Part shown: one piece after another, positions 1 through 48,000 of the stretch
How the letters are laid out: every line of letters starts with the position of its first letter
How positions within the stretch are numbered: position 1 is the first letter of the stretch
NCBI RefSeq assembly: GCF_044324875.1
Contig: NZ_CP172185.1
Strand: one strand, 5' to 3'
Origin: Escherichia coli
GTDB taxonomy: Bacteria; Pseudomonadota; Gammaproteobacteria; Enterobacterales; Enterobacteriaceae
Length of the DNA stretch: 64,000 nucleotides
Notes under the pieces: generated by a model
What the model saw: only the letters and a program-made list of their open reading frames with translations
Database searches by the model: none
Told to the model about the DNA's origin: nothing
Translations under genes and position numbers: made by a program

Positions 1-942
1 GTTAACGCAGAAGAACATAGAAACGGTCGGCTCATCAACGGAGAGTGCCGGCAGCGCTTCAACGTTTTGCGTGTCGCAAACGGTGTCAGAAATGTTCAGT
101 TCGCCCAGGCCCGTGATCGCCACGATATCGCCAGCTTCCGCCAGATCGGTTTCGATACGTTCCAGACCGAGGTGGCCCAGCACTTTACCGACTTTCGCGT
201 TGCGGGTTTTGCCTTCGCTATCGATGATAGTAACCTGCTGGTTCGGCTTCACTTTACCGCGCTTGATGCGGCCAATGCCGATAACGCCAACATAGCTGTT
301 GTAATCGAGCTGAGAAATCTGCATCTGGAACGGACCGTCAAGGTCAACGTCCGGCGCAGGAACGTGGTCAACAATCGCCTGATACAGCGGGGTCATGTCT
401 TCCGCCATATCTTCGTGGTCCAGACCCGCGATACCGTTCAGCGCAGAAGCGTAAACGATCGGGAAGTCCAGCTGCTCGTCGGTCGCGTCGAGGTTAACGA
501 ACAGATCGAATACCTGATCCACAACCCAATCAGGACGCGCGCCAGGGCGGTCAACTTTGTTGATAACAACAATCGGCTTCAGGCCGTAAGCAAACGCTTT
601 TTTGGTTACGAAGCGCGTTTGCGGCATCGGGCCGTCAAATGCGTCAACCACCAGCAGCACTGAGTCTACCATGGACATTACACGTTCAACTTCACCACCG
701 AAGTCGGCGTGCCCCGGGGTATCAACGATGTTGATACGGTAATCATTCCATTTGATAGCGGTGTTTTTCGCGAGGATGGTAATCCCACGCTCTTTCTCCA
801 AATCGTTGGAGTCCATCACGCGCTCTTGGGTTTCGGCACGAGAGTCGAACGTACCGGATTGTTGGAGCAGCTTGTCTACCAGGGTGGTTTTACCATGGTC
901 TACGTGCGCGATGATGGCGATATTACGCAATTTTTCGATCAC
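1..942 (-). CDS. typA: Translational GTPase TypA/BipA, N-terminal part (gene runs off the window start)
   Basis: Reverse complement of 900-942 encodes [20 protein letters not shown] (G1 P-loop motif) from a GTG at 940-942; the + strand ORFs at 67-663 and 709-990 are antisense shadows. Confidence 0.85.
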
Positions 943-1093
943 AACTTTGCCTCAGGCATTAGAAATAGCGCGTTATTGTACACGGATTAATCGCACTACA
1001 AAACAGGATCACAAACATCCTCCGCAAACAAGTATTGCAGAGTCCCTTTGTGATCGCTTTCACGGAGCATAAAAAGGGTTATCCAAAGGTCAT

Positions 1094-1142
1094 TGCACCA
1101 ATATAGTGCTTAATGTTTCCATTGAAGCACTATATTGGTGCA
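1094..1142 (+). promoter_or_regulatory. Paired NtrC (NRI) enhancer sites upstream of glnA
   Basis: Two TGCACCA-N-GGTGCA-like dyads (tgcaccaatatagtgct / gcactatattggtgca) about 100 bp upstream of the sigma54 promoter. Confidence 0.6.
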
Positions 1143-1213
1143 ACATTCACATCATGGTGCAGCCCTTTTGCACGATGTTAAGCATGATAACGCCTTTTAG
1201 GGGCAATTTAAAA

Positions 1214-1232
1214 GTTGGCACAGTTTTCGCTT
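1214..1232 (+). promoter_or_regulatory. sigma54 promoter glnAp2
   Basis: ttggcacagttttcgct fits the -24 GG / -12 GC consensus, about 85 bp upstream of the glnA ATG. Confidence 0.7.
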
Positions 1233-1314
1233 TATCTTTTTTACGGCGACACGGCCAAAATAATTGCAGATTTCGTTACCACGACGACCATGACCAATCC
1301 AGGAGAGTTAAAGT

Positions 1315-2724
1315 ATGTCCGCTGAACACGTACTGACGATGCTGAACGAGCACGAAGTGAAGTTTGTTGATTTGCGCTTCACCGATACCAAAGGTAAAGA
1401 ACAGCACGTCACTATCCCTGCTCATCAGGTGAATGCTGAATTCTTCGAAGAAGGCAAAATGTTTGACGGCTCCTCGATTGGCGGCTGGAAAGGCATTAAC
1501 GAATCCGATATGGTGCTGATGCCAGACGCATCCACCGCAGTGATTGACCCGTTCTTCGCCGATTCTACCCTGATTATCCGTTGCGACATCCTTGAACCTG
1601 GCACCCTGCAAGGCTATGACCGTGACCCGCGCTCTATTGCGAAGCGCGCTGAAGATTACCTGCGTTCCACTGGCATTGCCGACACCGTACTGTTCGGGCC
1701 AGAACCTGAATTCTTCCTGTTCGATGACATCCGTTTCGGATCTTCTATCTCCGGTTCCCACGTTGCTATCGACGATATCGAAGGCGCATGGAACTCCTCC
1801 ACCCAATACGAAGGTGGTAACAAAGGTCACCGTCCGGCAGTGAAAGGCGGTTACTTCCCGGTTCCGCCGGTAGACTCTGCTCAGGATATTCGTTCTGAAA
1901 TGTGTCTGGTGATGGAACAGATGGGTCTGGTGGTTGAAGCCCATCACCACGAAGTAGCGACTGCTGGTCAGAACGAAGTGGCTACCCGCTTCAATACCAT
2001 GACCAAAAAAGCTGACGAAATTCAGATCTACAAATATGTTGTGCACAACGTAGCGCACCGCTTCGGTAAAACCGCGACCTTTATGCCAAAACCGATGTTC
2101 GGTGATAACGGCTCCGGTATGCACTGCCACATGTCGCTGTCTAAAAACGGCGTTAACCTGTTCGCAGGCGACAAATACGCAGGTCTGTCTGAGCAGGCGC
2201 TGTACTACATTGGCGGCGTAATCAAACACGCTAAAGCGATTAACGCCCTGGCAAACCCGACCACCAACTCTTACAAGCGTCTGGTCCCGGGCTACGAAGC
2301 ACCGGTAATGCTGGCTTACTCTGCGCGTAACCGTTCTGCGTCTATCCGTATTCCGGTGGTTTCTTCTCCGAAAGCACGTCGTATCGAAGTACGTTTCCCG
2401 GATCCGGCGGCTAACCCGTACCTGTGCTTTGCTGCCCTGCTGATGGCCGGTCTTGATGGTATCAAGAACAAGATCCATCCGGGCGAAGCCATGGACAAAA
2501 ACCTGTATGACCTGCCGCCGGAAGAAGCGAAAGAGATCCCACAGGTTGCTGGTTCTCTGGAAGAAGCACTGAACGAACTGGATCTGGACCGCGAGTTCCT
2601 GAAAGCCGGTGGCGTGTTCACTGATGAAGCGATCGATGCGTACATCGCTCTGCGTCGCGAAGAAGATGACCGCGTACGTATGACTCCGCATCCGGTAGAG
2701 TTTGAGCTGTACTACAGCGTCTAA
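1315..2724 (+). CDS. glnA: Glutamine synthetase
   Basis: 469-aa [34 protein letters not shown]...; recognised as GlnA. Confidence 0.97.
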
Positions 2725-2784
2725 TAGTTGAAGTTGTACTACCCGGCGCAACAACGCCGGGATTTAGTTGCCGTGGAAACTTTC

Positions 2785-2810
2785 AGCCCATCTCTGCATG
2801 GGCTTTTTTC
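2785..2810 (+). terminator. Intrinsic terminator after glnA
   Basis: GC stem gcccat/atgggc followed by tttttt. Confidence 0.55.
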
Positions 2811-2854
2811 TCCGTCAATTCTCTGATGCTTCGCGCTTTTTATCCGTAAAAAGC

Positions 2855-2876
2855 TATAATGCACTAAAATGGTGCA
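2855..2876 (+). promoter_or_regulatory. glnL promoter with overlapping NtrC operator
   Basis: tataat -10 hexamer abutting the dyad tgcactaaaatggtgca, 20 bp upstream of glnL. Confidence 0.5.
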
Positions 2877-2897
2877 ACCTGTTCAGGAGACTGCTTT

Positions 2898-3947
2898 ATG
2901 GCAACAGGCACGCAGCCCGATGCTGGGCAGATCCTCAACTCGCTGATTAACAGTATTTTGTTAATCGATGACAACCTGGCGATCCATTACGCCAACCCCG
3001 CCGCGCAACAACTGCTCGCCCAAAGCTCCCGCAAATTGTTTGGTACGCCGTTACCGGAACTGTTGAGCTACTTCTCATTAAATATCGAGCTGATGCAAGA
3101 AAGTCTGGAGGCGGGGCAAGGCTTTACCGATAACGAAGTGACGCTGGTCATCGACGGGCGCTCGCATATCCTTTCTGTGACGGCCCAGCGTATGCCGGAC
3201 GGCATGATCCTGCTGGAGATGGCTCCGATGGATAACCAGCGCCGCTTAAGTCAGGAACAGCTACAGCACGCCCAGCAGGTTGCTGCCCGTGATTTAGTGC
3301 GCGGCCTGGCACATGAGATTAAAAATCCGCTTGGCGGTTTACGGGGCGCGGCGCAGCTGCTCAGCAAAGCATTACCTGACCCGTCACTACTCGAATATAC
3401 CAAAGTGATTATCGAACAGGCGGACCGGCTGCGAAATCTGGTCGACCGTCTGTTGGGGCCGCAGCTGCCCGGTACGCGCGTTACCGAAAGTATTCATAAA
3501 GTGGCTGAACGCGTGGTGACGCTGGTGTCGATGGAACTGCCGGACAACGTGCGGTTGATTCGTGATTACGACCCCAGCCTGCCGGAACTGGCGCACGACC
3601 CGGATCAAATTGAGCAAGTGCTCCTGAATATTGTGCGCAATGCGCTACAGGCGCTGGGGCCAGAGGGTGGTGAAATCATTCTGCGTACCCGCACAGCTTT
3701 CCAACTGACCTTACACGGCGAGCGTTATCGGCTGGCGGCGCGAATTGATGTGGAAGATAACGGGCCAGGTATTCCGCCTCATTTGCAGGATACGCTGTTT
3801 TACCCGATGGTCAGCGGCCGCGAAGGTGGCACCGGGCTTGGCTTATCCATCGCCCGTAATTTGATTGATCAGCATTCAGGCAAAATTGAATTTACCAGTT
3901 GGCCAGGTCATACCGAGTTCTCGGTTTACCTGCCTATCAGGAAATAA
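2898..3947 (+). CDS. glnL: Nitrogen regulation sensor histidine kinase NtrB (NRII)
   Basis: 349-aa ORF with H-box [11 protein letters not shown] and ATPase G-box GTGLGL. Confidence 0.96.
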
Positions 3948-3958
3948 AGGTGACGTTT

Positions 3959-5368
3959 ATGCAACGAGGGATAGTCTGGGTAGTCGATGACGATAGTTCC
4001 ATCCGTTGGGTGCTTGAACGTGCGCTCGCTGGAGCGGGTTTAACCTGTACGACATTTGAGAACGGCGCGGAGGTACTGGAGGCGCTGGCGAGCAAAACGC
4101 CGGATGTGCTGCTTTCAGATATCCGTATGCCGGGAATGGACGGGCTGGCGCTGCTCAAGCAGATTAAACAGCGCCATCCGATGCTTCCGGTCATCATTAT
4201 GACCGCACATTCCGATCTGGATGCTGCCGTCAGCGCCTATCAACAAGGGGCGTTTGATTATCTGCCCAAACCGTTTGATATCGACGAAGCCGTGGCGCTG
4301 GTTGAGCGCGCCATCAGCCATTATCAGGAACAGCAGCAGCCGCGTAATGTTCAGCTTAACGGCCCAACGACCGATATCATCGGCGAAGCGCCAGCCATGC
4401 AGGACGTGTTCCGGATTATCGGTCGGCTTTCGCGTTCTTCTATTAGCGTGCTGATTAACGGCGAGTCCGGCACCGGTAAAGAACTGGTCGCTCATGCCCT
4501 TCATCGCCACAGCCCGCGAGCCAAAGCGCCATTTATCGCGCTCAATATGGCGGCTATCCCGAAGGATTTGATCGAATCCGAACTGTTTGGTCACGAGAAA
4601 GGCGCGTTTACCGGCGCGAATACCATTCGTCAGGGGCGTTTTGAACAGGCTGATGGTGGCACATTATTCCTCGATGAAATTGGCGATATGCCGCTGGATG
4701 TGCAGACGCGTTTGCTGCGCGTGCTGGCAGACGGTCAGTTTTATCGCGTTGGCGGCTATGCGCCGGTGAAAGTGGATGTGCGGATTATCGCTGCCACTCA
4801 CCAGAATCTTGAACAGCGGGTGCAGGAAGGTAAGTTCCGTGAGGATCTGTTCCACCGCCTGAACGTTATCCGCGTTCATCTGCCGCCGCTGCGTGAGCGT
4901 CGGGAAGATATTCCCCGCCTGGCGCGCCATTTTTTACAGGTTGCCGCGCGCGAACTGGGCGTAGAAGCGAAGTTGCTGCATCCGGAAACCGAAGCCGCGC
5001 TGACGCGTCTGGCGTGGCCAGGCAACGTGCGCCAGCTGGAAAACACCTGTCGCTGGCTAACGGTGATGGCCGCCGGGCAGGAAGTGTTGATTCAGGATTT
5101 GCCCGGTGAACTGTTTGAATCAAACGTACCGGAAAGCACTTCACACATGCAGCCGGACAGTTGGGCAACACTGTTAGCACAGTGGGCAGATCGGGCGCTG
5201 CGTTCCGGTCATCAAAACCTGCTTTCCGAAGCACAGCCAGAGCTGGAACGGACGTTACTGACCACCGCGCTGCGACATACGCAGGGGCATAAACAGGAAG
5301 CGGCGCGGCTACTCGGCTGGGGGCGTAACACTCTGACGCGGAAGTTAAAAGAGCTGGGGATGGAGTGA
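3959..5368 (+). CDS. glnG: sigma54-dependent response regulator NtrC (NRI)
   Basis: Start placed at [12 protein letters not shown] (receiver domain) inside the longer track ORF; AAA+ motif GESGTGKE and C-terminal HTH present. Confidence 0.95.
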
Positions 5369-5479
5369 TTCACGGCTTGTGTGTAAAGATTGATTATTGA
5401 GCGCAAATTGCTGGTATTTTGCGCTTTACTGTTCCGATAAGTTCAGTATGATCTTGCCCGGAAAACGGGGAGAGTCATT

Positions 5480-5590
5480 ATGCTGGAATCAATAATTAAT
5501 CTGGTATCGAGTGGCGCAGTTGACAGCCACACACCGCAAACTGCCGTTGCTGCCGTGCTGTGTGCCGCAATGATTGGGCTGTTTAGTTGA
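5480..5590 (+). CDS. yshB: Small protein YshB (36 aa)
   Basis: Short ORF MLESIINLVSSGAVDSHTPQTAVAAVLCAAMIGLFS recalled as the small K-12 gene between glnG and hemN. Confidence 0.5.
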   Translation: MLESIINLVSSGAVDSHTPQTAVAAVLCAAMIGLFS

Positions 5591-5622
5591 GTTTCAGATT
5601 GCTGATGAAGTGCTCTTTGTTC

Positions 5623-5713
5623 ATGCCGGATGCGGCGTGAACGCCTTATCCGGCCTACAAAAGCAATATTTTCAACAGGTTTTGTAGGCCTGATAAGCGT
5701 AGCGCATCAGGCA
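5623..5713. repeat. REP/BIME palindromic elements
   Basis: gccggatgcggcgtgaacgccttatccggcctac ... gtaggcctgataagcgtagcgcatcaggc. Confidence 0.75.
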
Positions 5714-5779
5714 ATCTTGTTCTCAGCACATTGATGGCGCTTTCGTTTTCTACTTTGTAAACGAAGCGCCATTCACTAT

Positions 5780-7153
5780 TTAAATCACCCGTGAGAACTG
5801 CTGCATCCGCGCTTTCTGGCGCAGATAGGTATCAAAGCACATGCAAATGTTGCGGATCAGCAAGCGACCTTTCGCCGTCACCTGAATCCCCTTCTCATCC
5901 ACATCCACCAGCCCATCTTTTGCTAACGGGGCGAGCAGCTTGAGATCTTCCGCAAAGTAATCAGCGAAGTGCAAATCCCACTGTTGCTCAATGGGAGCGT
6001 AATCCAGACGGAAGTTGCAGATGAGCGACTTAATCACATCGCGGCGAATACAGTCATCACGCGTTAGCGCAATACCACGCCACAGCGCATTGCCTTGTTC
6101 ATCCACTTGCTGATAGTACTGCTTCAACTCTTTCTGGTTCTGCGCGTAGCAGTCGCCAATCATGCTGATGGCGGAAACGCCCATCCCCAGCAGATCGGTA
6201 TCGCCCTGAGTGGTGTAGCCCTGGAAGTTACGGTGCAGCACGCCTTCACGCTGGGCCACCGCCAGCTCGTCATCCGGACGGGCAAAGTGATCCATACCGA
6301 TAAACTGATAGCCCGATTGCGTCAGGAAGGCGATGGTTTCCTGCAGGATATCGAGTTTTTGCTGCGGACTCGGCAGGTCAGCATCTTTGATTTTGCGCTG
6401 AGCAGCAAAAATGGTCGGCAGATGCGCGTAGTTAAAGACACTCAGACGATCGGGGTTCAGCTCCGCCACACGTTTCAGGGTAAAAGCGAAACTCTCCGGC
6501 GTTTGTTTCGGCAGGCCGTAAATCAGGTCGATGTTGGTGGAGGTAAAGCCAATCTCACGCGCATGGTTAAGCAGTGCAAAGATGAATTCTTCATCCTGCT
6601 CGCGGTTAACCAGACGTTGCACTTCTTTGTTGAAGTCCTGCACGCCCATGCTCAGGCGATTAAAGCCCTCGGCGCGTAAATGATCGAGTACATCCAGTTC
6701 GATTTCGCGCGGATCGACTTCGATCGAAATCTCCGCATCGGCATTGAACTGGAAGTTTTCGCGCAGCAGCTTCATCAGACGGCTGATTTGCGCTTTGTTC
6801 AGATACGTCGGCGTACCACCGCCCCAGTGCAGCTGGCTCACCTTGCGCCCGGCAAAAAGCGGTGCACGATGGACGATTTCTTGCTCCAGCGCGTCCAGAT
6901 ACTGATCGGCCTTGTGCTGCTGGCGAGTAACAATCTTATTGCAACCGCAGAAGTAACAAAGCTTATGGCAGAACGGGATATGTACGTAGAGAGATAATGG
7001 ACGCTCAGGATAGCGCGCCACGGCTTGTAAAAACGCCTGTTCGCCGAAGTCTTCTGAAAACTCCAGCGCGGTCGGGTACGAGGTGTATCGTGGCCCGGAA
7101 TAGTTATATTTCTGGATCAGGGCCAGATCCCAGTCGATTTGCTGTACAGACAT
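5780..7153 (-). CDS. hemN: Oxygen-independent coproporphyrinogen III oxidase (radical SAM)
   Basis: ORF ...MSVQQIDWDLALIQKYNYSGPRYTSYPTALEF... with CxxxCxxC radical-SAM motif (HIPFCHKLCYFCGC); start taken at the second Met. Confidence 0.95.
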   Translation of the reverse strand: MSVQQIDWDLALIQKYNYSGPRYTSYPTALEFSEDFGEQAFLQAVARYPERPLSLYVHIPFCHKLCYFCGCNKIVTRQQHKADQYLDALEQEIVHRAPLFAGRKVSQLHWGGGTPTYLNKAQISRLMKLLRENFQFNADAEISIEVDPREIELDVLDHLRAEGFNRLSMGVQDFNKEVQRLVNREQDEEFIFALLNHAREIGFTSTNIDLIYGLPKQTPESFAFTLKRVAELNPDRLSVFNYAHLPTIFAAQRKIKDADLPSPQQKLDILQETIAFLTQSGYQFIGMDHFARPDDELAVAQREGVLHRNFQGYTTQGDTDLLGMGVSAISMIGDCYAQNQKELKQYYQQVDEQGNALWRGIALTRDDCIRRDVIKSLICNFRLDYAPIEQQWDLHFADYFAEDLKLLAPLAKDGLVDVDEKGIQVTAKGRLLIRNICMCFDTYLRQKARMQQFSRVI

Positions 7154-7341
7154 GCTCACTCCTTCCGATGGCGTCTCTGGCGGCTACGGCGTACCGGCGG
7201 ATGCCCGTTTCGGGTCATCAGCCGGTTGCGCAGCCACTTTTGTCGCCGCGACAACCGCTGTAGTTTAACGAATAACCACACCAGATAACATATAACCGGA
7301 AGGGTTATCAGCAGAACGGGAAGGCCCACGGCGGCAATCCG

Positions 7342-7851
7342 TTAGTTGCCCCGCAGCAGACGCATCATGTCTTCTTGCTTCTCGTCTTCTTCCTCTTCTT
7401 CGTCATCGTCATAAGAGAGGCCGAGTTTCTGCATCAACTCATCAATACGATCCAGTTTGGCATCCACCCAGGATTGCTCTTCGGCGCTCAGGGTTTCGCC
7501 TGCCTCCAGACGTTCCAGCAGCGCATCCAGACGCTCATCCGTTTCCAGTAACTCCAACTCCGCCTGCGGTGAAAGCATAGGTTTCTCACTCTTCGGTTTG
7601 TGCTGTTTGGTGACTTTTTCAGTCACGCCCAATGGAATAGGGGTTTTACTGCCAATACGTGGATCTTTCGGTGCGTTCTGGCCTTTACTGCCTGACGTGG
7701 TGTTACCGCCCGCTGCGCGGCTGCCCGGCGCATGACCACGACGTTTTTTCTGACGCTTACGGTCACGAGCTTCCTGATCCAGCTCCTCGCGTGTTTTTCG
7801 ACGCGCTTTTGCATGACCTTTGCTGCGTGAGTTTGAAGATGATGGTTTCAT
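7342..7851 (-). CDS. yihI: Der GTPase-activating protein YihI
   Basis: [19 protein letters not shown]... basic N-terminus and acidic C-terminus ([12 protein letters not shown]); start placed at MKPSS inside the longer track ORF. Confidence 0.9.
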
Positions 7852-7917
7852 AATGGTTCGTCTTTTAGCCGTTTTATTCAGTATAGATTTGCGGCGGAAT
7901 CTAACAGAAAGCAAGCA

Positions 7918-8162
7918 AAGAAAAAAGGCGACAGATTACTCTGTCGCCTTTTTTCCTGACTCATAACCCTTAACGGGTCTTACAATCCTTGCAGGCCGCC
8001 AACACACCCTGTTTTTCCATTAGCCGGAACAATCCGTGTTGATTCCATTTCCGTTTAATTACGTCTCCGGACGTTTGTCTTCCTGACAATCCTCTGTCTT
8101 CGCCTCCTGGCGCTCCTGACCCTCATCCTGAGTCATTGTTCCTGTTAGCGTCCTCGCTCTAT
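7918..8162 (-). ncRNA. csrC: CsrC small RNA (CsrA-sequestering)
   Basis: Reverse complement matches remembered CsrC, with repeated GGA-containing motifs and a terminal hairpin (aggcgacag...ctgtcgcct) plus U-run; lies in the yihI-engB intergenic region as in K-12. Confidence 0.85.
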
Positions 8163-8432
8163 GGGTGCTACTTTACGCCTTTGCTTTAAACAAACAATCA
8201 ACCGCCATCAGTATTTGCACATTTTCAGAGTTTTATATAAAAGCAATTAACTGATTTATATAGCTTATTTGACATGCATCGCAGAATTTTCTCTGCTATT
8301 TCGCATAAAGACTATCGGCAATGTCTCACAAAGCGTATGGCTTTTACTTACAACGCTCACGCCGAAAAATCCGCCTTTTATTATGGTTCAGGTATAATCG
8401 CCGCAAAGCTTTGACTGACGGAGACGACCGCT

Positions 8433-9065
8433 TTGACTAATTTGAATTATCAACAGACGCATTTTGTGATGAGTGCGCCTGATATTCGCCACCTACCTTC
8501 CGATACCGGAATTGAAGTGGCTTTTGCAGGCCGTTCCAACGCAGGTAAATCCAGCGCGCTGAACACGCTGACTAACCAGAAAAGCCTGGCGCGGACCTCA
8601 AAAACCCCAGGGCGCACCCAGCTTATCAACCTGTTTGAAGTGGCTGACGGCAAGCGTCTGGTTGACCTGCCCGGCTATGGCTACGCGGAAGTCCCGGAAG
8701 AGATGAAGCGCAAATGGCAACGCGCGCTCGGCGAATACCTCGAAAAACGTCAGAGCCTGCAAGGTCTGGTGGTGCTAATGGATATTCGCCATCCGCTGAA
8801 AGATTTGGATCAGCAGATGATTGAGTGGGCGGTAGACAGCAATATCGCCGTGCTGGTGCTGCTGACCAAAGCGGACAAACTGGCAAGCGGCGCACGTAAA
8901 GCGCAATTGAATATGGTGCGTGAAGCGGTGCTGGCGTTTAACGGTGATGTGCAGGTTGAAACGTTCTCTTCACTGAAGAAACAAGGCGTGGACAAGCTGC
9001 GGCAGAAACTGGATACCTGGTTTAGCGAGATGCAGCCTGTAGAAGAAACGCAGGACGGCGAATAA
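8433..9065 (+). CDS. engB: Ribosome biogenesis GTPase EngB/YihA
   Basis: 210-aa ORF from a TTG start, with P-loop GRSNAGKSS and TKADK motif. Confidence 0.93.
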
Positions 9066-9084
9066 TTTTCTTGCCTTAATGCTT

Positions 9085-9168
9085 GTGCCGGATGTGGCGT
9101 ATCCGGCCCGTAAATTCAATAGATTACACTTCTACCGTTGGCCTGATAAACAGGGCGCATCAGGCATT
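9085..9168. repeat. REP palindromic elements
   Basis: gccggatgtggcgtatccggc ... gcctgataaacagggcgcatcaggc. Confidence 0.7.
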
Positions 9169-9187
9169 ACGGATCTTTTCTTTCGCC

Positions 9188-9299
9188 CAATAAAAAACGC
9201 CCCAGTCATTACTGACTGGGGCGGCTAAAATATTCAGCCAAATCCGATTACGTGAAGTAAAAGGTCTGAAAGATAGAACATCTTACCTCTGTACCCTAC
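9188..9299 (-). ncRNA. spf: Spot 42 small RNA
   Basis: Reverse complement reads GTAGGGTACAGAGGTAAGATGTTCTATCTTTCAGACCTTTTACTTCACG...GCCCCAGTCAGTAATGACTGGGGCGTTTTTT, matching Spot 42 and its intrinsic terminator. Confidence 0.9.
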
Positions 9300-9446
9300 G
9301 CGACTAACTTTACTCTTTTTTGTTCAGTTCAGAAAGCATTTTTTGTAATTTTTTTTCAGTTGTTGCATAGGAATTTCTAATAGCCATCACAAAACGTGAC
9401 AGCTTATGTTGCTTACTTACGAAAAAAGGGCATGTTCAGGCGAATC

Positions 9447-18393: not shown

Positions 18394-18513
18394 ATGCCTG
18401 GCAGTTCCCTACTCTCGCATGGGGAGACCCCACACTACCATCGGCGCTACGGCGTTTCACTTCTGAGTTCGGCATGGGGTCAGGTGGGACCACCGCGCTA
18501 CGGCCGCCAGGCA
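18394..18513 (-). rRNA. rrfA: 5S ribosomal RNA
   Basis: Reverse complement reads TGCCTGGCGGCCGTAGCGCGGTGGTCCCACCTGACCCCATGCCGAACTCAG...GGAACTGCCAGGCAT. Confidence 0.97.
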
Positions 18514-18605
18514 AATTCTGTTTATCAGACCGCTTCTGCGTTCTGATTTAATCTGTATCAGGCTGAAAATCTTTCTCTCATCCGCCAAAACATCTTCGGC
18601 GTTGT

Positions 18606-21510
<2,905 letters not shown>

Positions 21511-21684
21511 TCACAACCCGAAGATGTTTCACTTCAGAGTTGCGAAAATTTGAGAGACTCACGAACAACTTTCGTTGTTCAGTGTTTCAATTTTCAGCTT
21601 GATCCAGATTTTTAAAGAGCAAAACTTCGCAGTGAACCTTTGCAGGTACACTCTGAAGTATTTTTTATTTAATCACTACAGAGA

Positions 21685-21760
21685 TGGTGGAGCTATGCGG
21701 GATCGAACCGCAGACCTCCTGCGTGCAAAGCAGGCGCTCTCCCAGCTGAGCTATAGCCCC
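21685..21760 (-). tRNA. alaT: tRNA-Ala (UGC), 16S-23S spacer
   Basis: Reverse complement GGGGCTATAGCTCAGCTGGGAGAGCGCCTGCTTTGCACGCAGGAGGTCTGCGGTTCGATCCCGCATAGCTCCACCA. Confidence 0.97.
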
Positions 21761-21802
21761 ATAACATGTAGTTAAAACCTCTTCAAATTTGCGGTGCAAA
21801 TT

Positions 21803-21879
<77 letters not shown>

Positions 21880-21947
21880 GTAGAGGTTTTACTGCTCATT
21901 TTCATCAGACAATCTGTGTGAGCACTGCAAAGCACAGTTCTTTAAGG

Positions 21948-23489
<1,542 letters not shown>

Positions 23490-36961: not shown

Positions 36962-39204
<2,243 letters not shown>

Positions 39205-42540: not shown

Positions 42541-42658
42541 AATCACTCTTCATTCTGCAGGACTGCATAAAAGATGAGCCGATTCAGGCAATGTGATTTG
42601 TTGCATGCTGACTATAGTTAACATTGCGCAACATTTTTATAAGGGTACGGAGAATACC

Positions 42659-43471
42659 ATGGCAACAACACAACAATCTGGATTTGCACCTGCTGCATCG
42701 CCTCTCGCTTCGACCATCGTTCAGACCCCGGACGACGCGATTGCGGCGGGCTTCACCTCTATCCCCTCACAAGGGGATAACATGCCTGCTTACCATGCCA
42801 GACCAAAGCAGAGCGATGGCCCACTGCCAGTGGTCATTGTAGTGCAGGAAATTTTTGGCGTGCATGAACATATCCGCGACATTTGTCGCCGTCTGGCGCT
42901 GGAGGGGTATCTGGCTATCGCACCTGAACTTTACTTCCGCGAAGGCGATCCGAATGATTTTGCCGATATCCCCACGTTACTTAGCGGTCTGGTAGCAAAA
43001 GTGCCTGACTCGCAGGTGCTGGCCGATCTCGATCATGTCGCCAGTTGGGCTTCCCGCAACGGCGGCGATGTACATCGTTTAATGATCACCGGATTCTGCT
43101 GGGGGGGACGTATCACCTGGCTGTATGCTGCGCATAACCCGCAACTGAAAGCGGCGGTGGCATGGTACGGCAAACTGACAGGCGATAAGTCGCTGAATTC
43201 ACCGAAACAACCTGTTGATATCGCAACCGATCTTAACGCGCCGGTTCTCGGCTTATATGGTGGTCAGGATAACAGCATTCCGCAGGAGAGCGTTGAAACC
43301 ATGCGCCAGGCGCTGCGGGCTGCTAATGCGAAAGCAGAGATTATCGTCTACCCGGATGCCGGGCATGCATTCAACGCCGATTATCGCCCGAGCTATCATG
43401 CCGAATCTGCGAAAGATGGCTGGCAGCGTATGCTGGAGTGGTTTAAGCAGTATGGTGGGAAGCGGAATTAG
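42659..43471 (+). CDS. ysgA: Putative dienelactone hydrolase family protein
   Basis: Start chosen at MATTQQSGFAPAAS (271 aa); alpha/beta hydrolase motifs (GFCWGG). Confidence 0.9.
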   Translation: MATTQQSGFAPAASPLASTIVQTPDDAIAAGFTSIPSQGDNMPAYHARPKQSDGPLPVVIVVQEIFGVHEHIRDICRRLALEGYLAIAPELYFREGDPNDFADIPTLLSGLVAKVPDSQVLADLDHVASWASRNGGDVHRLMITGFCWGGRITWLYAAHNPQLKAAVAWYGKLTGDKSLNSPKQPVDIATDLNAPVLGLYGGQDNSIPQESVETMRQALRAANAKAEIIVYPDAGHAFNADYRPSYHAESAKDGWQRMLEWFKQYGGKRN

Positions 43472-43862
43472 TTTCCTCTTAGTCTATATTTGAGATGGTG
43501 AGTGAACGAGTGCGTTTTGCTGCCATCTCTGTCCCCCAAAAAATAATCAGTATGAATTGATTGGAGAGCACGACTCCGCTATTTGACCTTAAGAAAGTCG
43601 GCAAGTAATAGTCATAAGTGAGTCTCTTCACTGGCAGACACCTTAGAGATTTACCATCAACTCCCATTCTCAAACAAACATTAATTATTATCAACACATT
43701 CACATTAATTATAAATTATCTCAGACCTTCCTGATAAAAAGATATTAAAGTGAAACATTTTGTTTTTCACATTTTAGTTCATCCCTTTTAGGCGTAAATA
43801 AAGGTAAAAAATAACAATACTATTTTTCTTTCACAAAAGAATTAACAAAAGGTTTTTCAAGG

Positions 43863-44996
43863 ATGAGTGATATTATTTACCTGAACATAACCGGAGAACA
43901 ACAAGGATGTATTTCCTCTCGTTGTGGAACGAGCGCATCAATAGGTAATCGCTGGCAGATTGGCCATGAAGATGAAATCTTCGCGTTCTCGCTCTCTAAT
44001 AGTATTACGAATACAGGCAAAGGGTCACAATTGCATGGCCTTAGTTTCTGTAAATTGATTGACAAAAGCTCCCCGTTACTTATTAACGCTATTAACAATA
44101 ACGAGCAGTTGTTCATGGAGTTTGACTTCTATCGGATCAATAGATTTGGTCGATGGGAGAAATATTACAACATTCAACTTCGCGGCGCGCTCTTATCAGC
44201 AATCAATCACCTGTTTACTGAGAACAATCTGGATACAGAAACCATCACTGTCAGTTATGAATATATACTCTCCAGGCATCTGATTGCTAATACTGAATTT
44301 AGTTATTTGGCATTTCCCGATAACTACAACCGTCTGTTTATACCACGGCCAAAAACTAAAGATGATAATGGCCTCAAAACACTCAATAGTAAAGCGGTTG
44401 GCAGACTGCTTGCTGCTGGCGGCATATACAATGGGAATATCGAAGGATTCAGGGAAACAGCAAACAAGTTGGGAGGAGATGCACCTGCTGGTTACGATCA
44501 AGTTATGGATAACAAAGGGTTACTCATCGCTGGTGCTTCAATAGTTGCTGGAGTTGTTCTGGGAAGAATGAGATTCCCTGATTTGGAATCACTTGAGCAT
44601 TTCGGAGCCAGAGGAGCAGTATCAGGAAGACCATTTAATCCCGACCTTGCCGGTGGTCCAATTGAAAACCTGACGATAGATGGCGTAACAATCAACAGGG
44701 AAGGTATCGCTATTGTTGAAAAGCATATCTCCAGATTTGATCATGATCCAGCTAATGATGTAATGATTTCAAGGCTAAAGAAAATAGCAAATAAAGAATT
44801 GCTTCCTGAAAAATACGATCTGAACTACTATACTCATGAATGTCGCGAGTATCAGCGTTATTGTAATTTAGGATGGGAAACAGGTGAACCGAAAGGTTTA
44901 GATGGATATGAATTATGGAATAATGTACATACTGCAACTCTAGAAGACTTTAAAATTAAAGATACTGACTTATTTCATCCGGATGCAAAAAAATGA
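43863..44996 (+). CDS. Hcp-domain protein with C-terminal extension (candidate Hcp-fused type VI secretion effector toxin)
   Basis: 377-aa ORF in AT-rich DNA. N-terminal ~155 aa follow the Hcp family pattern (YLNITGE...LHGLSFCKLIDKSSPLL...YYNIQL), alignable by eye with E. coli Hcp. The C-terminal ~220 aa have no family I can assign. Family call is by recall, not by search. Confidence 0.7.
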   Translation: MSDIIYLNITGEQQGCISSRCGTSASIGNRWQIGHEDEIFAFSLSNSITNTGKGSQLHGLSFCKLIDKSSPLLINAINNNEQLFMEFDFYRINRFGRWEKYYNIQLRGALLSAINHLFTENNLDTETITVSYEYILSRHLIANTEFSYLAFPDNYNRLFIPRPKTKDDNGLKTLNSKAVGRLLAAGGIYNGNIEGFRETANKLGGDAPAGYDQVMDNKGLLIAGASIVAGVVLGRMRFPDLESLEHFGARGAVSGRPFNPDLAGGPIENLTIDGVTINREGIAIVEKHISRFDHDPANDVMISRLKKIANKELLPEKYDLNYYTHECREYQRYCNLGWETGEPKGLDGYELWNNVHTATLEDFKIKDTDLFHPDAKK

Positions 44997-45250
44997 CGAT
45001 TACGATAGTTGAATTTAACGTGCTGAAAGTTATGGCTGAGAAAGATATTGACTGGAGCTGGATGGTGCTGGATCGTACTTTAGCTATACGAAATATTCCA
45101 GGATTTGGCAACGTAGCGAATATCGTAACAAAGCTGGTTAATCATGGGTTGGTTGATATCGTAAATGGTGAGGGCAACTCTAGACCACGCTACAGAGTTT
45201 CTCAATATGGATTGAATCTTATCAAAGAACAACAAGACAACCTCTTCTGA
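44993..45250 (+). CDS. Small hypothetical protein, candidate cognate immunity protein
   Basis: 85-aa ORF whose ATG overlaps the upstream stop (ATGA at 44993-44996); paralogue of the next ORF; conserved LDRTL-IR-IPGFGNV-NIV-KL--GLV block. Confidence 0.6.
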   Translation: MTITIVEFNVLKVMAEKDIDWSWMVLDRTLAIRNIPGFGNVANIVTKLVNHGLVDIVNGEGNSRPRYRVSQYGLNLIKEQQDNLF

Positions 45251-45309
45251 TCCAGCCATTACAGGAGCATGATTTACATTGTGATCTTTCAATAAGATAC
45301 TCATCAATT

Positions 45310-45570
45310 TTGGTACAGAATATCGTGATCACTAAAAATGAACTTAACGTGCTGAACGTTATGACTGAGAAAGATATAAACTGGAACTGGATGAATCTCG
45401 ATCGCACACTATCCATAAGGCAAATTCCAGGATTCGGGAATGTTGTTAACATTGTTAACAAATTAGCTAACGAAGGTTTGGTTATTATTGAGGATAGCGG
45501 GAATAAGTCTATGCCTCACTACCACGTTAGTGAAAAGGGATACAATCTCGTGCAACGTGAGAATAAATAA
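45310..45570 (+). CDS. Small hypothetical protein, paralogue of the preceding gene (candidate second or orphan immunity protein)
   Basis: 86-aa ORF with roughly 60% identity by eye to the 44993-45250 product, plus clear nucleotide similarity; track start is TTG at 45310, and an in-frame GTG at 45325 is an alternative start. Confidence 0.5.
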   Translation: MVQNIVITKNELNVLNVMTEKDINWNWMNLDRTLSIRQIPGFGNVVNIVNKLANEGLVIIEDSGNKSMPHYHVSEKGYNLVQRENK

Positions 45571-45676
45571 CGTAGCGTTGATTACTGAACGGAATCACTC
45601 AAAACTGTGTTTTGCGAAAAAAACGATTCGGTTATTTCTGCTCCTGAAGATCAGCTTCAATCTGGCACTCATGCAA

Positions 45677-45702
45677 AATGGCTTCCAGTGCTGGAAGCCA
45701 TT
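45677..45702. repeat. 26-bp near-perfect palindrome between the insertion and the metE 3' end
   Basis: aatggcttccag tg ctggaagccatt; possible bidirectional terminator. Confidence 0.5.
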
Positions 45703-45738
45703 ATCGTACTGCAATTTACAGTGACTCGTTAATATTCG

Positions 45739-48000
45739 TCATCCCCGACGCAAATTCTGCGCCGCCTGCACCATGTTCGCCAGTGCCGCGCGGGTTTCTG
45801 GCCAGCCGCGCGTTTTCAGGCCACAGTCCGGGTTGACCCACAGACGCTCTGCCGGAATGCGTTTTGCCGCTTTCTTCAGCAAGGCTTCAATCCATTCCAC
45901 GCTCGGTACGTTTGGCGAGTGAATGTCATAGACGCCAGGACCGATTTCATTTGGATAATCAAACTCTTCAAACGACTCCAGCAACTCCATGTCGGAACGC
46001 GAGGTTTCGATGGTGATGACGTCTGCGTCCAGCGCCGCAATCGAATCCATGATGTCGTTGAACTCGCAGTAACACATGTGAGTGTGGATTTGTGTGTCAT
46101 CTTTCGCCACGGCGGCGTTGATACGGAAAGCCTCCACGCCCCACTGGAGATAGGCATCCCAGTCGCCGCGACGCAGCGGTAAACCTTCGCGCAGTGCCGG
46201 TTCATCAATCTGGATGATGCCAATTCCAGCGGCTTCCAGGTCCGCCACTTCATCACGCAGCGCCAGCGCAATTTGTTTGGCGATGGTTTCACGGCTGACA
46301 TCTTCACGCGGGAACGACCAGCAGAGAATGGTCACCGGGCCGGTCAGCATCCCTTTCACCGGTTTGTCAGTCAGCGATTGCGCATACTTCGCCCACTCAA
46401 TGGTAATCGGTGCCGGGCGGCTAACGTCACCAATGACAATCGGCGGCTTCACGCAGCGGGAACCGTAGCTCTGTACCCAACCGTTTTGCGTAAAGACAAA
46501 ACCGTCGAGATGCTCGCCAAAGTATTCCACCATGTCATTACGCTCGGCCTCGCCATGCACCAGCACATCCAGACCTAAACGTTCCTGCTCAACAATGGCC
46601 TGCTTGATATGTTCCGCAATGCCCGTGCGGTAGTTGTTGGCGTCGAGATTACCCTTTTTGAAATCCAGACGCAGGGTACGAATTTCCGTGGTTTGCGGGA
46701 AGGAACCAATCGTGGTGGTCGGCCACGCGGGCAGTTTAAAACGCGCACGCTGGGCTTCAGCACGCACTTCATAGACATTCGCACGCTGACTGTCCTGAGC
46801 GGTGATCGCCGCCAGACGCTTTTCTACTGCCGGATTATGTACGCGGGTTGAGTGACGACGCGCCTGAATCGGAGCGCTCCACTCTGCCAGAGCAGCCGTG
46901 TCACCACTGTTCAGCGCATCGCGCAGCAGTGCCAGTTCATGACATTTTTGCAGGGCGAAGGCAAACCAGCTTTTCACTTCTGCATCAAGACGCGTTTCCA
47001 CGCTCAGGTCGATGGGGCTGTGCAGCAGTGAGCAGGAAGATGCCACCCACAAATCGCGTTTGCCGACAATGTCCTTAATTTGCGCATACTTCTCGGTAAG
47101 ATCGGCGCGCCAGACGTTACGACCATTGATCAGACCCGCAGACAGCAGCCAGTCAGAAGGCAGACGCTTGTGCAGTTCAGCAACGTCATCTTTACCATGT
47201 ACAAGATCGACATGCAGACCCTGAACAGGCAGCGCAGTAATCGTGTCGAGATTTGGCGTTACGCCTTCAAAATAGGTGGTCAGCAGCAGTTTCACCTGTC
47301 CCTGGAGCGCGTCGTAAGCGGGTTTGTATGCGTCCAGCCACGCCTGCGGTAGTTCCAGTACCAGCGCTGGTTCGTCGATCTGTACCCACTCAATACCGCG
47401 TTTTGCCAGTTCTGCCAGCACTTGCTGATAAATCGGAAGAATGTCGTTCAGCAGGCTCAGGCGATCAAACTGTTCACCTTTCACTTTACCCAGCCACAGG
47501 TAGGTAACCGGCCCCAGCAGCACAGGTTTCACCTTGTGGCCCAGCGCCAGCGCCTCGTCCACTTCCTCCAGCAGCTGCGTCCAGGTCAGTTTGAACTGTT
47601 GGCCTTTAACGAACTCCGGCACCATGTAGTGATAGTTGGTGTTAAACCATTTGGTCATTTCCGCTGCCGCCGCAGGTTCACCAGTCGGCGCACGTCCACG
47701 ACCAATACGGAACAGGGTGTCGATATCTACCGAACCATCTTTGTTCTGATGACGTGGCGGAACATTACCCAGCAGCAGACTGGTGGTCAGTACATGATCG
47801 TACCAGGCAAAATCGCCCACCGGCAGCAGGTCGATACCCGCCTGCTTTTGTTGATCCCAGTGACGGGCACGTAATTCACGCCCAACCGCCAGCAGTTCTT
47901 CACGCGTGGAGTTCCCCGCCCAATAACTTTCTTGCGCTTTTTTCAGCTCGCGACGCAGGCCAACGCGAGGGAAACCGAGGGTGTGATTCAATATTGTCAT
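45739..48000 (-). CDS. metE: Cobalamin-independent methionine synthase
   Basis: 753-aa [32 protein letters not shown]... Confidence 0.97.

Follow-up and report, generated by a model that had tools for sequence, protein, structure and literature searches.

A probable orphan Hcp-borne effector locus of Escherichia coli with a predicted toxin domain of unclassified family and very wide distribution

The islet between ysgA and metE

The window analysed here, a 64-kb stretch of E. coli DNA, has the chromosomal gene order rmuC-udp-ysgA ... metE, with a low-GC islet of 2.3 kb and three genes lying between ysgA and metE (Table 1). In E. coli 55989, ysgA adjoins metE with a terminator hairpin alone between them, and the islet therefore represents an insertion, which took the place of this hairpin together with the final codons of ysgA. 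Of 5426 complete E. coli genomes, 857 carry it on the chromosome (841 with coverage of at least 80%), or about one in six, and many clinical isolates are among them. Truncated copies are present in many E. coli, which indicates that the locus is often decaying.

Table 1. Coordinates of the genes and protein modules at the ysgA-metE locus, in positions of the window.
Feature	Coordinates	Strand	Basis or remarks
ysgA	42593-43471		convergent with metE
Low-GC islet	43466..45738	.	38.5% GC vs 51% in the window; between convergent ysgA and metE
hcp-ET gene, 377 aa	43863..44996	+	ORF; Hcp + pre-toxin module + toxin domain; RefSeq name tssD
Hcp/TssD tube-protein domain, aa 1-155	43863..44327	+	TIGR03344, PF05638
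Pre-toxin module, aa 172-245	44376..44597	+	invariant NSKxxGRLLAAGGxYNGN block, then hydrophobic helix
Glycine-zipper-like hydrophobic stretch, aa 219-234	44517..44564	+	hydropathy, conservation
Toxin domain, aa 246-377, ~132 aa	44598..44993	+	small beta hairpin and four main helices
Putative cognate immunity gene, 85 aa	44993..45250	+	start overlaps toxin stop (ATGA)
Second immunity paralog, 57% identical	45310..45570	+	86 aa from TTG 45310; RefSeq GTG 45325, 81 aa
metE	45739-48000	minus	

The exact 377-aa product of hcp-ET is a member of a cluster of 1511 sequences. Its N-terminal part is an Hcp tube-protein domain (NCBIfam TIGR03344, E 2.8e-36, aa 1-147; Pfam PF05638, E 4.8e-14), and past residue ~150-155 neither single-sequence nor profile searches gave any match in Pfam (even at E<=10), NCBIfam or the PDB sequences. 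The initial annotation, made from the letters of the DNA, had found no recognisable family for this extension and could assign it neither to HNH, colicin-DNase and pyocin S3 nor to DUF2235 domains; the database searches bear this out, the Pfam search being empty for 39 homologs as well as for the extension of the window protein. The same annotation had treated the extension as one unit of ~220 aa, which proved not to be so. It consists of two modules, for which we use the terms pre-toxin module and toxin domain. The protein thus combines an N-terminal Hcp domain, a C-terminal toxin domain that is known on other carriers and a putative immunity gene directly downstream, which are the marks of the Hcp-ET class. 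Judged by its sequence, it is an Hcp-ET effector with an unclassified and very widespread toxin tip of predicted novel fold.

The pre-toxin module

The modularity of the extension is directly visible in its relatives, of which more than 500 were matched when the extension was used as a query. A unit of ~205 aa starting with KTLNSKAVGRLLAAGG (aa 172) is joined to at least three unrelated N-termini in Enterobacterales, namely Hcp (Escherichia, Salmonella and Citrobacter), DUF8093 (Cronobacter, Atlantibacter and Enterobacter) and an unnamed N-terminal region of ~145 aa (Pantoea, Klebsiella and Lonsdalea). The pre-toxin module itself is matched by two PHROG phage-protein families without an assigned function (phrog_31266 and phrog_14497, E ~1e-15), and its first ~55 residues (to about aa 228) are shared with the E. 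coli protein YhhZ. AlphaFold confidence is low across the whole module (pLDDT 28-60).

The most conspicuous element of the module is the glycine-zipper-like stretch GLLIAGASIVAGVVLG, which contains the motif S226xxxG230xxxG234. The stretch had been noted initially at aa 218-234; it is indeed present, but its limits are aa 219-234 (nt 44517-44564). Taken alone it is not significant, since 4% of composition-preserving shuffles match its 16-residue hydropathy and 43% have [GAS]xxxGxxxG somewhere. We nevertheless count it as real because its key positions are conserved, with G219, I222, A225, S226 and G234 invariant in 16 homologs of 63-81% identity. The 19-residue Kyte-Doolittle maximum is 1.69 for the window protein and ~1.0-1.3 for most homologs, values that are borderline for a classical transmembrane helix.

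The initial annotation regarded the stretch as typical of membrane-inserting toxins, an interpretation that is not supported by the comparison with YhhZ, where the same module precedes a toxin of HNH type. For this reason we consider the glycine-rich stretch to be a feature of a portable delivery linker, lying outside the toxin. In the window protein this linker occupies the place that the Pyocin_S domain has in bacteriocins. A precedent is given by Tde1, in which permeabilisation of the membrane and prey entry, though not catalysis, depend on a glycine zipper that is no part of the DNase domain (PMC10240207). Following this precedent, translocation is the best reading, and the stretch may help the toxin to cross the inner membrane, although it is short, only moderately hydrophobic in most homologs and poorly modelled by AlphaFold. 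The module would then suggest a testable route by which T6SS effectors, once they are in the periplasm, get into the cytoplasm, with one linker serving unrelated toxins and carriers.

The toxin domain

In an exhaustive profile search, relatives from outside the Enterobacterales align solely to the last ~130 residues, and the toxin domain proper is therefore placed at aa ~246-377. An alignment of 39 homologs (40-60% identity) has invariant residues at G251, G264, H288, R304, D319, H325, E326, E329, R332, W352, H356 and A358, and nearly invariant ones at S254, R256, R291, N298, N353 and E361. The initial annotation had picked out candidate catalytic residues in three motifs: HECREYQRYC (aa 325-334), WNNVH (aa 352-356) and LFHPD (aa 370-374). 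Most of this selection holds, since H325, E326, E329, R332, W352 and H356 are all invariant, but C327 and C334 are unconserved, and the histidine of LFHPD is common yet variable. H288, R304 and D319, which had not been listed, are also invariant.

The AlphaFold2 model of the domain, built with the 39-homolog alignment, has a pLDDT of 95.5 and a pTM of 0.89; its small hairpin is N-terminal, and conserved polar residues occur on each of its four main helices. Hydrophobic segments are absent from the domain. A Foldseek search with an AlphaFold model, as had been proposed initially, returned no known fold: the first, poor model of the whole module had no match in the PDB, and the search of AFDB50 recovered family members only. 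The domain is likewise unmatched in Pfam, NCBIfam, PHROGs and PADLOC, and against the PDB sequences neither a single-sequence query nor two profiles gave more than chance matches. Its isoelectric point is 5.65 in the window protein, with a median of 5.6 over the 39 homologs; it is acidic in 32 of these and above 7.5 in seven.

A number of specific identities were considered and rejected. An HNH or colicin-type DNase (Hcp-ET1, Hcp-ET4) gives no Pfam match at E<=10 and none in the 39 homologs, and the region of the conserved histidines is helical and lacks the beta-beta-alpha-metal motif (HH..N..H); the 'HNH endonuclease' labels on fragments of the domain are names taken from the source databases. 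The DUF2235/Tle1 phospholipases (Hcp-ET2, alpha/beta-hydrolase domain PF09994) are excluded by the empty Pfam search and by the size and helical nature of the domain (132 aa). The Pyocin_S/IMT clan ('Pyocin S3', Hcp-ET3) is excluded by the Pfam search of the window protein, from which PF06958 is missing. The R-x4-6-H motif of HEPN RNases is not conserved in the 39-homolog alignment, which also has no invariant tyrosine and so leaves no place for a tyrosine-recombinase or topoisomerase-like mechanism. Three further candidates were dismissed: T6EC4 from Citrobacter koseri, with its likeness to Tox-REase-5; the colicin D-like carocin S2; and PT1/PT7 of Nachmias et al. For the Lipocone superfamily (TelC, Min-Wnt), the characteristic four-helix cone with His on H2, Glu on H3 and Asp on H4 was not recovered, and the immunity proteins here are soluble.

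Distribution and carriers

The toxin domain is very widely distributed. The exhaustive profile search found 690 protein clusters at E<=1e-3, of which 153 reach E<=1e-30, and a scan of one representative genome per species found it encoded in 210 species, among them Enterobacterales, Pseudomonas, Burkholderiales, many cyanobacteria, Planctomycetes, Bacteroidota, Actinobacteria (Acidimicrobiia) and Acidobacteria (Acidobacteriota). It is always C-terminal. The carriers of 38 full-length distant homologs include Pyocin_S (7), PAAR (3), RHS (2-3) and LysM (2), together with eCIS_core, WXG100 and Peptidase_S8. In the Rhs carriers the domain follows the Rhs core, and one PAAR locus has vgrG and a gene for a DcrB/Eag-type chaperone upstream. 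With such diverse trafficking modules and a linked immunity gene, the domain is a polymorphic toxin tip in the sense of Zhang et al. 2012.

In many bacteriocin homologs, the toxin domain directly follows a Pyocin_S domain. In one sequence (P0233), the D-x4-FP-x8-Y motif of the Pyocin_S domain, as defined in PMC5536347, lies ~12 residues upstream of the toxin domain.

Immunity genes

Two small open reading frames follow the toxin gene, of 85 aa and 81-86 aa, and the suggestion that immunity-like genes lie here is well founded. Homologs of the 85-aa protein stand downstream of the toxin domain in Pantoea, in Cronobacter and in the PAAR locus. More generally, 76 of 79 species-representative loci have a small ORF whose start lies only a few bases from the toxin stop and in many cases overlaps it, and its product is mostly 76-96 aa in length. 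With the 85-aa protein as its starting point, a jackhmmer search recovered the downstream ORF at 48 of the 79 loci, in all phyla (46 at E <= 1e-9), and a second, unrelated immunity family of ~88 aa accounts for 21 pyocin-type loci. There is no overlap between these families, which together cover 69 of the 79 loci; in addition, three downstream ORFs of Bacteroidota resemble divergent members of the first family. The linkage between toxin and immunity gene is thus tight, whichever carrier is used.

Members of the first family weakly resemble the winged helix of PadR/MarR (E 0.05-0.6), which is probably the source of the database name 'MarR family transcriptional regulator'. The 85-aa protein is better read as a putative immunity protein, because it is small and travels with the toxin domain on any carrier. 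This name, as well as 'HNH endonuclease' and 'colicin', is likely to mislead. On inspection of the sequences, neither a signal peptide nor a transmembrane segment is seen in the putative immunity proteins, and the isoelectric point of the immunity protein is near neutral. Cyanobacteria show a different arrangement, in which the toxin domain stands alone and its partner is a 160-aa protein in which the winged-helix part is joined to a HicB-like domain; this resembles a toxin-antitoxin pair.

Proposed function

We consider that the islet is probably an orphan T6SS effector-immunity locus, encoding an Hcp-borne enzyme that acts in the cytoplasm, a glycine-rich helix for crossing the inner membrane and an 85-aa immunity protein. 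How the protein is secreted, how it crosses the membrane, where it acts and by what chemistry we infer as follows. By analogy with the Hcp-ET class, the Hcp domain would place the protein in the T6SS tube, from which it would be fired into a neighbouring bacterium. Once in the periplasm, the basic, Gly/Ala-rich helix of the pre-toxin module may help the C-terminal domain across the inner membrane, as the Tde1 example suggests. The ~132-aa domain would then kill as an enzyme inside the cytoplasm, with an active site formed by His, Asp and Glu residues; its conserved arginines might serve to hold phosphate. The producer and its relatives would be protected by the 85-aa winged-helix-like protein, which would bind the toxin and block it, and the second paralog may guard against a variant toxin.

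A cytoplasmic target is indicated by the soluble immunity proteins, by the toxin-antitoxin-like pair of the cyanobacteria and by the adjacency of Pyocin_S in the bacteriocin homologs. The Pyocin_S domain has been reported exclusively with toxins that are delivered to the cytoplasm (PMC9040868; PMC5536347). From the pattern of invariant His/Asp/Glu and Arg residues, the domain would most likely be a metal-dependent phosphoesterase, either a nuclease specific for some RNA or DNA or an enzyme that hydrolyses nucleotides. Its context suggests a nuclease, a reading that we hold loosely because the toxin is acidic and the immunity protein near neutral, the reverse of the charge pattern of classical nuclease bacteriocins. 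The acidic isoelectric point argues against a non-specific DNase.

A wider proposal, which we offer tentatively and as somewhat short of probable, is that this is a novel-fold killing domain with an activity unlike that of the known bacteriocin nucleases, directed at translation or the nucleotide pool, and used by T6SS, WXG100/T7SS-type, eCIS and S-type pyocin systems as well as by cyanobacterial TA-like pairs. The pre-toxin module would, in the same proposal, be a portable device for inner-membrane crossing that replaces Pyocin_S/IMT in Hcp-borne and other enterobacterial effectors. Once defined, the fold and activity of the domain would add a new class of toxin.

Alternative readings

The suggestion that this is an undescribed toxin domain is largely right, as no known family or fold was matched, but the domain may be the same as the killing domain that pyocin G and carocin D carry. 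The comparison set, likened to the window family by published description only, consists of PyoG (ETV05907.1, residues 486-640), pyocin SX2 (EHF11209.1), carocin D (ADH95192.1) and carocin S3. Membership in this family, as a DNase or an inhibitor of protein synthesis, is a real possibility that falls a little below an even chance, and if true, the domain would be known in practice, though unclassified. The killing domain of PyoG, of ~155 aa, comes directly after Pyocin_S/IMT, a position that the window family also has in many S-type pyocins, and its predicted structure is unlike any known bacteriocin cytotoxic domain. The pyocin G-like immunity proteins are 87-90 aa in length, comparable to the 85-90 aa of the window family with its overlapping stop codon, and in carocin S3 the killer gene and the immunity gene share an ATGA overlap. 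The database entry nearest to carocin S3 is named 'HNH endonuclease domain protein', and fragments of the window family carry stray names of this kind. Two points weigh on the other side: no protein of P. aeruginosa or Pectobacterium is among the matches listed, a listing that is itself biased, and PyoG was found by a pipeline of Pfam cytotoxic profiles, whereas the window domain matches no Pfam profile. The activities published for this group conflict, carocin D and S3 being described as DNases and SX2 as an inhibitor of in-vitro transcription-translation without DNase activity. If the families are the same, work on the present domain could resolve this conflict. Related domains occur in pyocins that are under development as narrow-spectrum antibiotics.

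The SX2 result, should the two be related, also bears on the idea that the enzyme leaves nucleic acid uncut and attacks NTPs, NAD(P), an alarmone or a protein of the translation machinery. The acidity of the domain in 32 of the 39 homologs and the invariant arginines beside the His/Glu/Asp cluster are consistent with such a substrate, but all cytotoxic domains described after Pyocin_S/IMT are nucleases (PMC9040868), and we regard the idea as rather doubtful. The view of the initial annotation, that the protein forms pores in or depolarises the inner membrane through its glycine-zipper helix, seems to us highly improbable. It could appeal to the conserved SxxxGxxxG, to charged flanks and a Kyte-Doolittle 19-residue value of 1.69, and to glycine zippers being a typical feature of effectors that form pores (PMC10240207). 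The helix is, however, a single short one of 16 residues, neither a hairpin nor a bundle; it is not within the conserved toxin domain and stands in front of an HNH toxin in YhhZ, and the part that is conserved and widespread is a soluble C-terminal domain devoid of hydrophobic segments. Pore-formers normally have membrane proteins for immunity. The immunity proteins encoded here are soluble by sequence inspection, with neither a signal peptide nor a membrane segment, which likewise argues against a pore-former, and the hairpin or multiple transmembrane segments and the membrane-located immunity of Tse4, VasX, Tme, Ssp6 and the colicin pore domains are absent. Action in the periplasm, with lipid II or lipid head groups as targets, as for Lipocone/TelC or colicin M, we take to be extremely improbable. 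The four-helix domain with His, Glu and Asp on different helices has a superficial likeness to the Lipocone active site (PMC12419801), but Lipocone immunity proteins are all membrane proteins or lipoproteins, and the link to Pyocin_S/IMT points to the cytoplasm.

Comparison with known systems

The cytoplasmic enzyme that we favour has its nearest architectural relative in YhhZ, a protein of 392 aa encoded in K-12 and O104:H4 at the locus yhhY-yhhZ-yrhA. The yhhZ and hcp-ET genes are 75% identical over nt 1-621 and then diverge completely. YhhZ has weak Pfam matches to HNH and Col-Pyo_DNase, and Hcp-ET1 of Ma et al. 2017 was reported from O104:H4 C227-11 and 55989 with HNH/colicin-DNase signatures. 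From the strain occurrence, these weak matches and the length of YrhA (164 aa, which fits the reported ETI1 identity of 99.4% as one mismatch in 164), we infer that YhhZ is Hcp-ET1 of that study and YrhA its immunity protein. The window protein and YhhZ have in common the Hcp domain, the pre-toxin module as far as aa ~228, an orphan position on the chromosome and an immunity gene that overlaps the toxin stop. They differ in the toxin, which is unrelated (weakly HNH/Col-Pyo_DNase in YhhZ; unmatched and predicted to be helical in the window protein), in the immunity protein (164 aa in YrhA; 85 aa and winged-helix-like here) and in the locus (yhhY-yrhB; ysgA-metE). The toxin and immunity protein of the window belong to none of the five Hcp-ET clans that have been published.

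Tde1 of Agrobacterium tumefaciens, an Ntox15 DNase, is similarly a T6SS effector with a glycine zipper outside its catalytic domain (PMC10240207). Its zipper is N-terminal and binds the adaptor Tap1, whereas the stretch in the window protein lies between Hcp and toxin, and the two toxin domains are unrelated.

Among the bacteriocins, colicin E9, colicin D and pyocin S2 have the same order of Pyocin_S/IMT and then killing domain that is seen in the distant homologs of the toxin domain. The window protein itself differs from these nuclease bacteriocins in having the hydrophobic pre-toxin module instead of Pyocin_S, and its killing domain falls outside the five known nuclease types. The pyocin G group resembles the toxin domain, as far as the likeness can be drawn from published descriptions, with a position after Pyocin_S/IMT, a length of ~130-155 aa, a novel predicted fold and an immunity gene for ~87-90 aa; its members are diffusible bacteriocins, in contrast to the T6SS tube fusion encoded here.

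Carrier and immunity partners of the toxin domain

At the pyocin-type loci (L060, L066, L069-L092 and L010), the toxin domain (aa 246-377 of the window protein) is paired with a second, unrelated immunity family of ∼88 aa, which shows no overlap with the winged-helix immunity family. The pyocin-borne copies use this separate family, and thus immunity type partitions with either the carrier type (i.e., the N-terminal part joined to the toxin) or the toxin sub-clade. Within cyanobacteria (L039-L047, L052 and L080), the domain is a stand-alone protein of ∼140 aa with no carrier, and in the adjoining partner (120-161 aa) the winged-helix immunity domain is joined to a HicB-like one. The cyanobacterial pair looks like a toxin-antitoxin module made from the same toxin/immunity pair.

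The second immunity paralog of the window has no toxin of its own beside it. It is probably an orphan that confers immunity to a variant of the toxin. The C-terminal tails differ among E. coli toxin variants, ending in ...LFHPDAKK in the window protein and in ...LYHQDALDYDN in the homolog P0105. The remaining features (Table) include ordinary RNA genes, among them a complete rRNA operon that includes tRNA-Ile and tRNA-Ala; these genes have no relation to the hcp-ET finding. The AT-rich stretch presumably contains the promoter.

Table. Positions of further features in the window
Feature	Window position	Remark
ES222	1024-1131	ordinary RNA gene
CsrC	7909-8162	ordinary RNA gene
Spot 42	9191-9309	ordinary RNA gene
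rRNA operon	18396-23489	ordinary RNA genes
Erse sRNA	38599-38850	ordinary RNA gene
AT-rich stretch	43472-43862	390 bp, upstream of the hcp-ET start
Second immunity paralog	45310-45570	57% identical to the first, 60 nt downstream of it

Decay, possible carrier swapping and database names

The islet is often in decay, with the immunity genes persisting. In many strains the copies are interrupted or have no Hcp part, e.g., in E. coli UTI89 (Q1R4A0, 229 aa), in APEC O1 (A0A0H2Z4D2, 163 aa) and, as fragments, in Shigella; one Shigella sonnei fragment carries the name “IS1 orfB”. In the databases, copies with a truncated N-terminus bear the name “HNH endonuclease” or “colicin”, and the immunity proteins are listed as “MarR family transcriptional regulator”. 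Profile searches support none of these names for the window proteins, and they look like annotation that was transferred on the basis of shared linkers or of a weak similarity in fold.

In Pantoea agglomerans (L001-L003, positions 1-9316), a homolog with an unnamed N-terminal carrier adjoins two Tlde1-domain genes and a 45-aa DUF8093 fragment, and a LuxI/LuxR pair also adjoins the locus. The arrangement resembles an orphan T6SS effector islet that still holds traces of carrier swapping.

Relation of the pre-toxin module to phage families and YhhZ

The 75-aa pre-toxin module (window 44376-44600) matches phrog_31266 and phrog_14497, two families of phage proteins of unknown function, at E ∼1e-15, which places this linker also in prophage-encoded proteins with other C-termini. 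The Hcp-fused protein YhhZ (L008, K-12; L009, O104:H4; locus positions 2501-3679) has in common with the window protein its Hcp domain and also the initial ∼55 residues of the module, but its C-terminal end is an HNH-type toxin, unlike that of the window protein. Such a shared N-terminal part followed by different toxins points to recombination between effectors, at a site inside the hydrophobic stretch or immediately behind it. In K-12, yrhA is shortened and is followed by an IS1 element.
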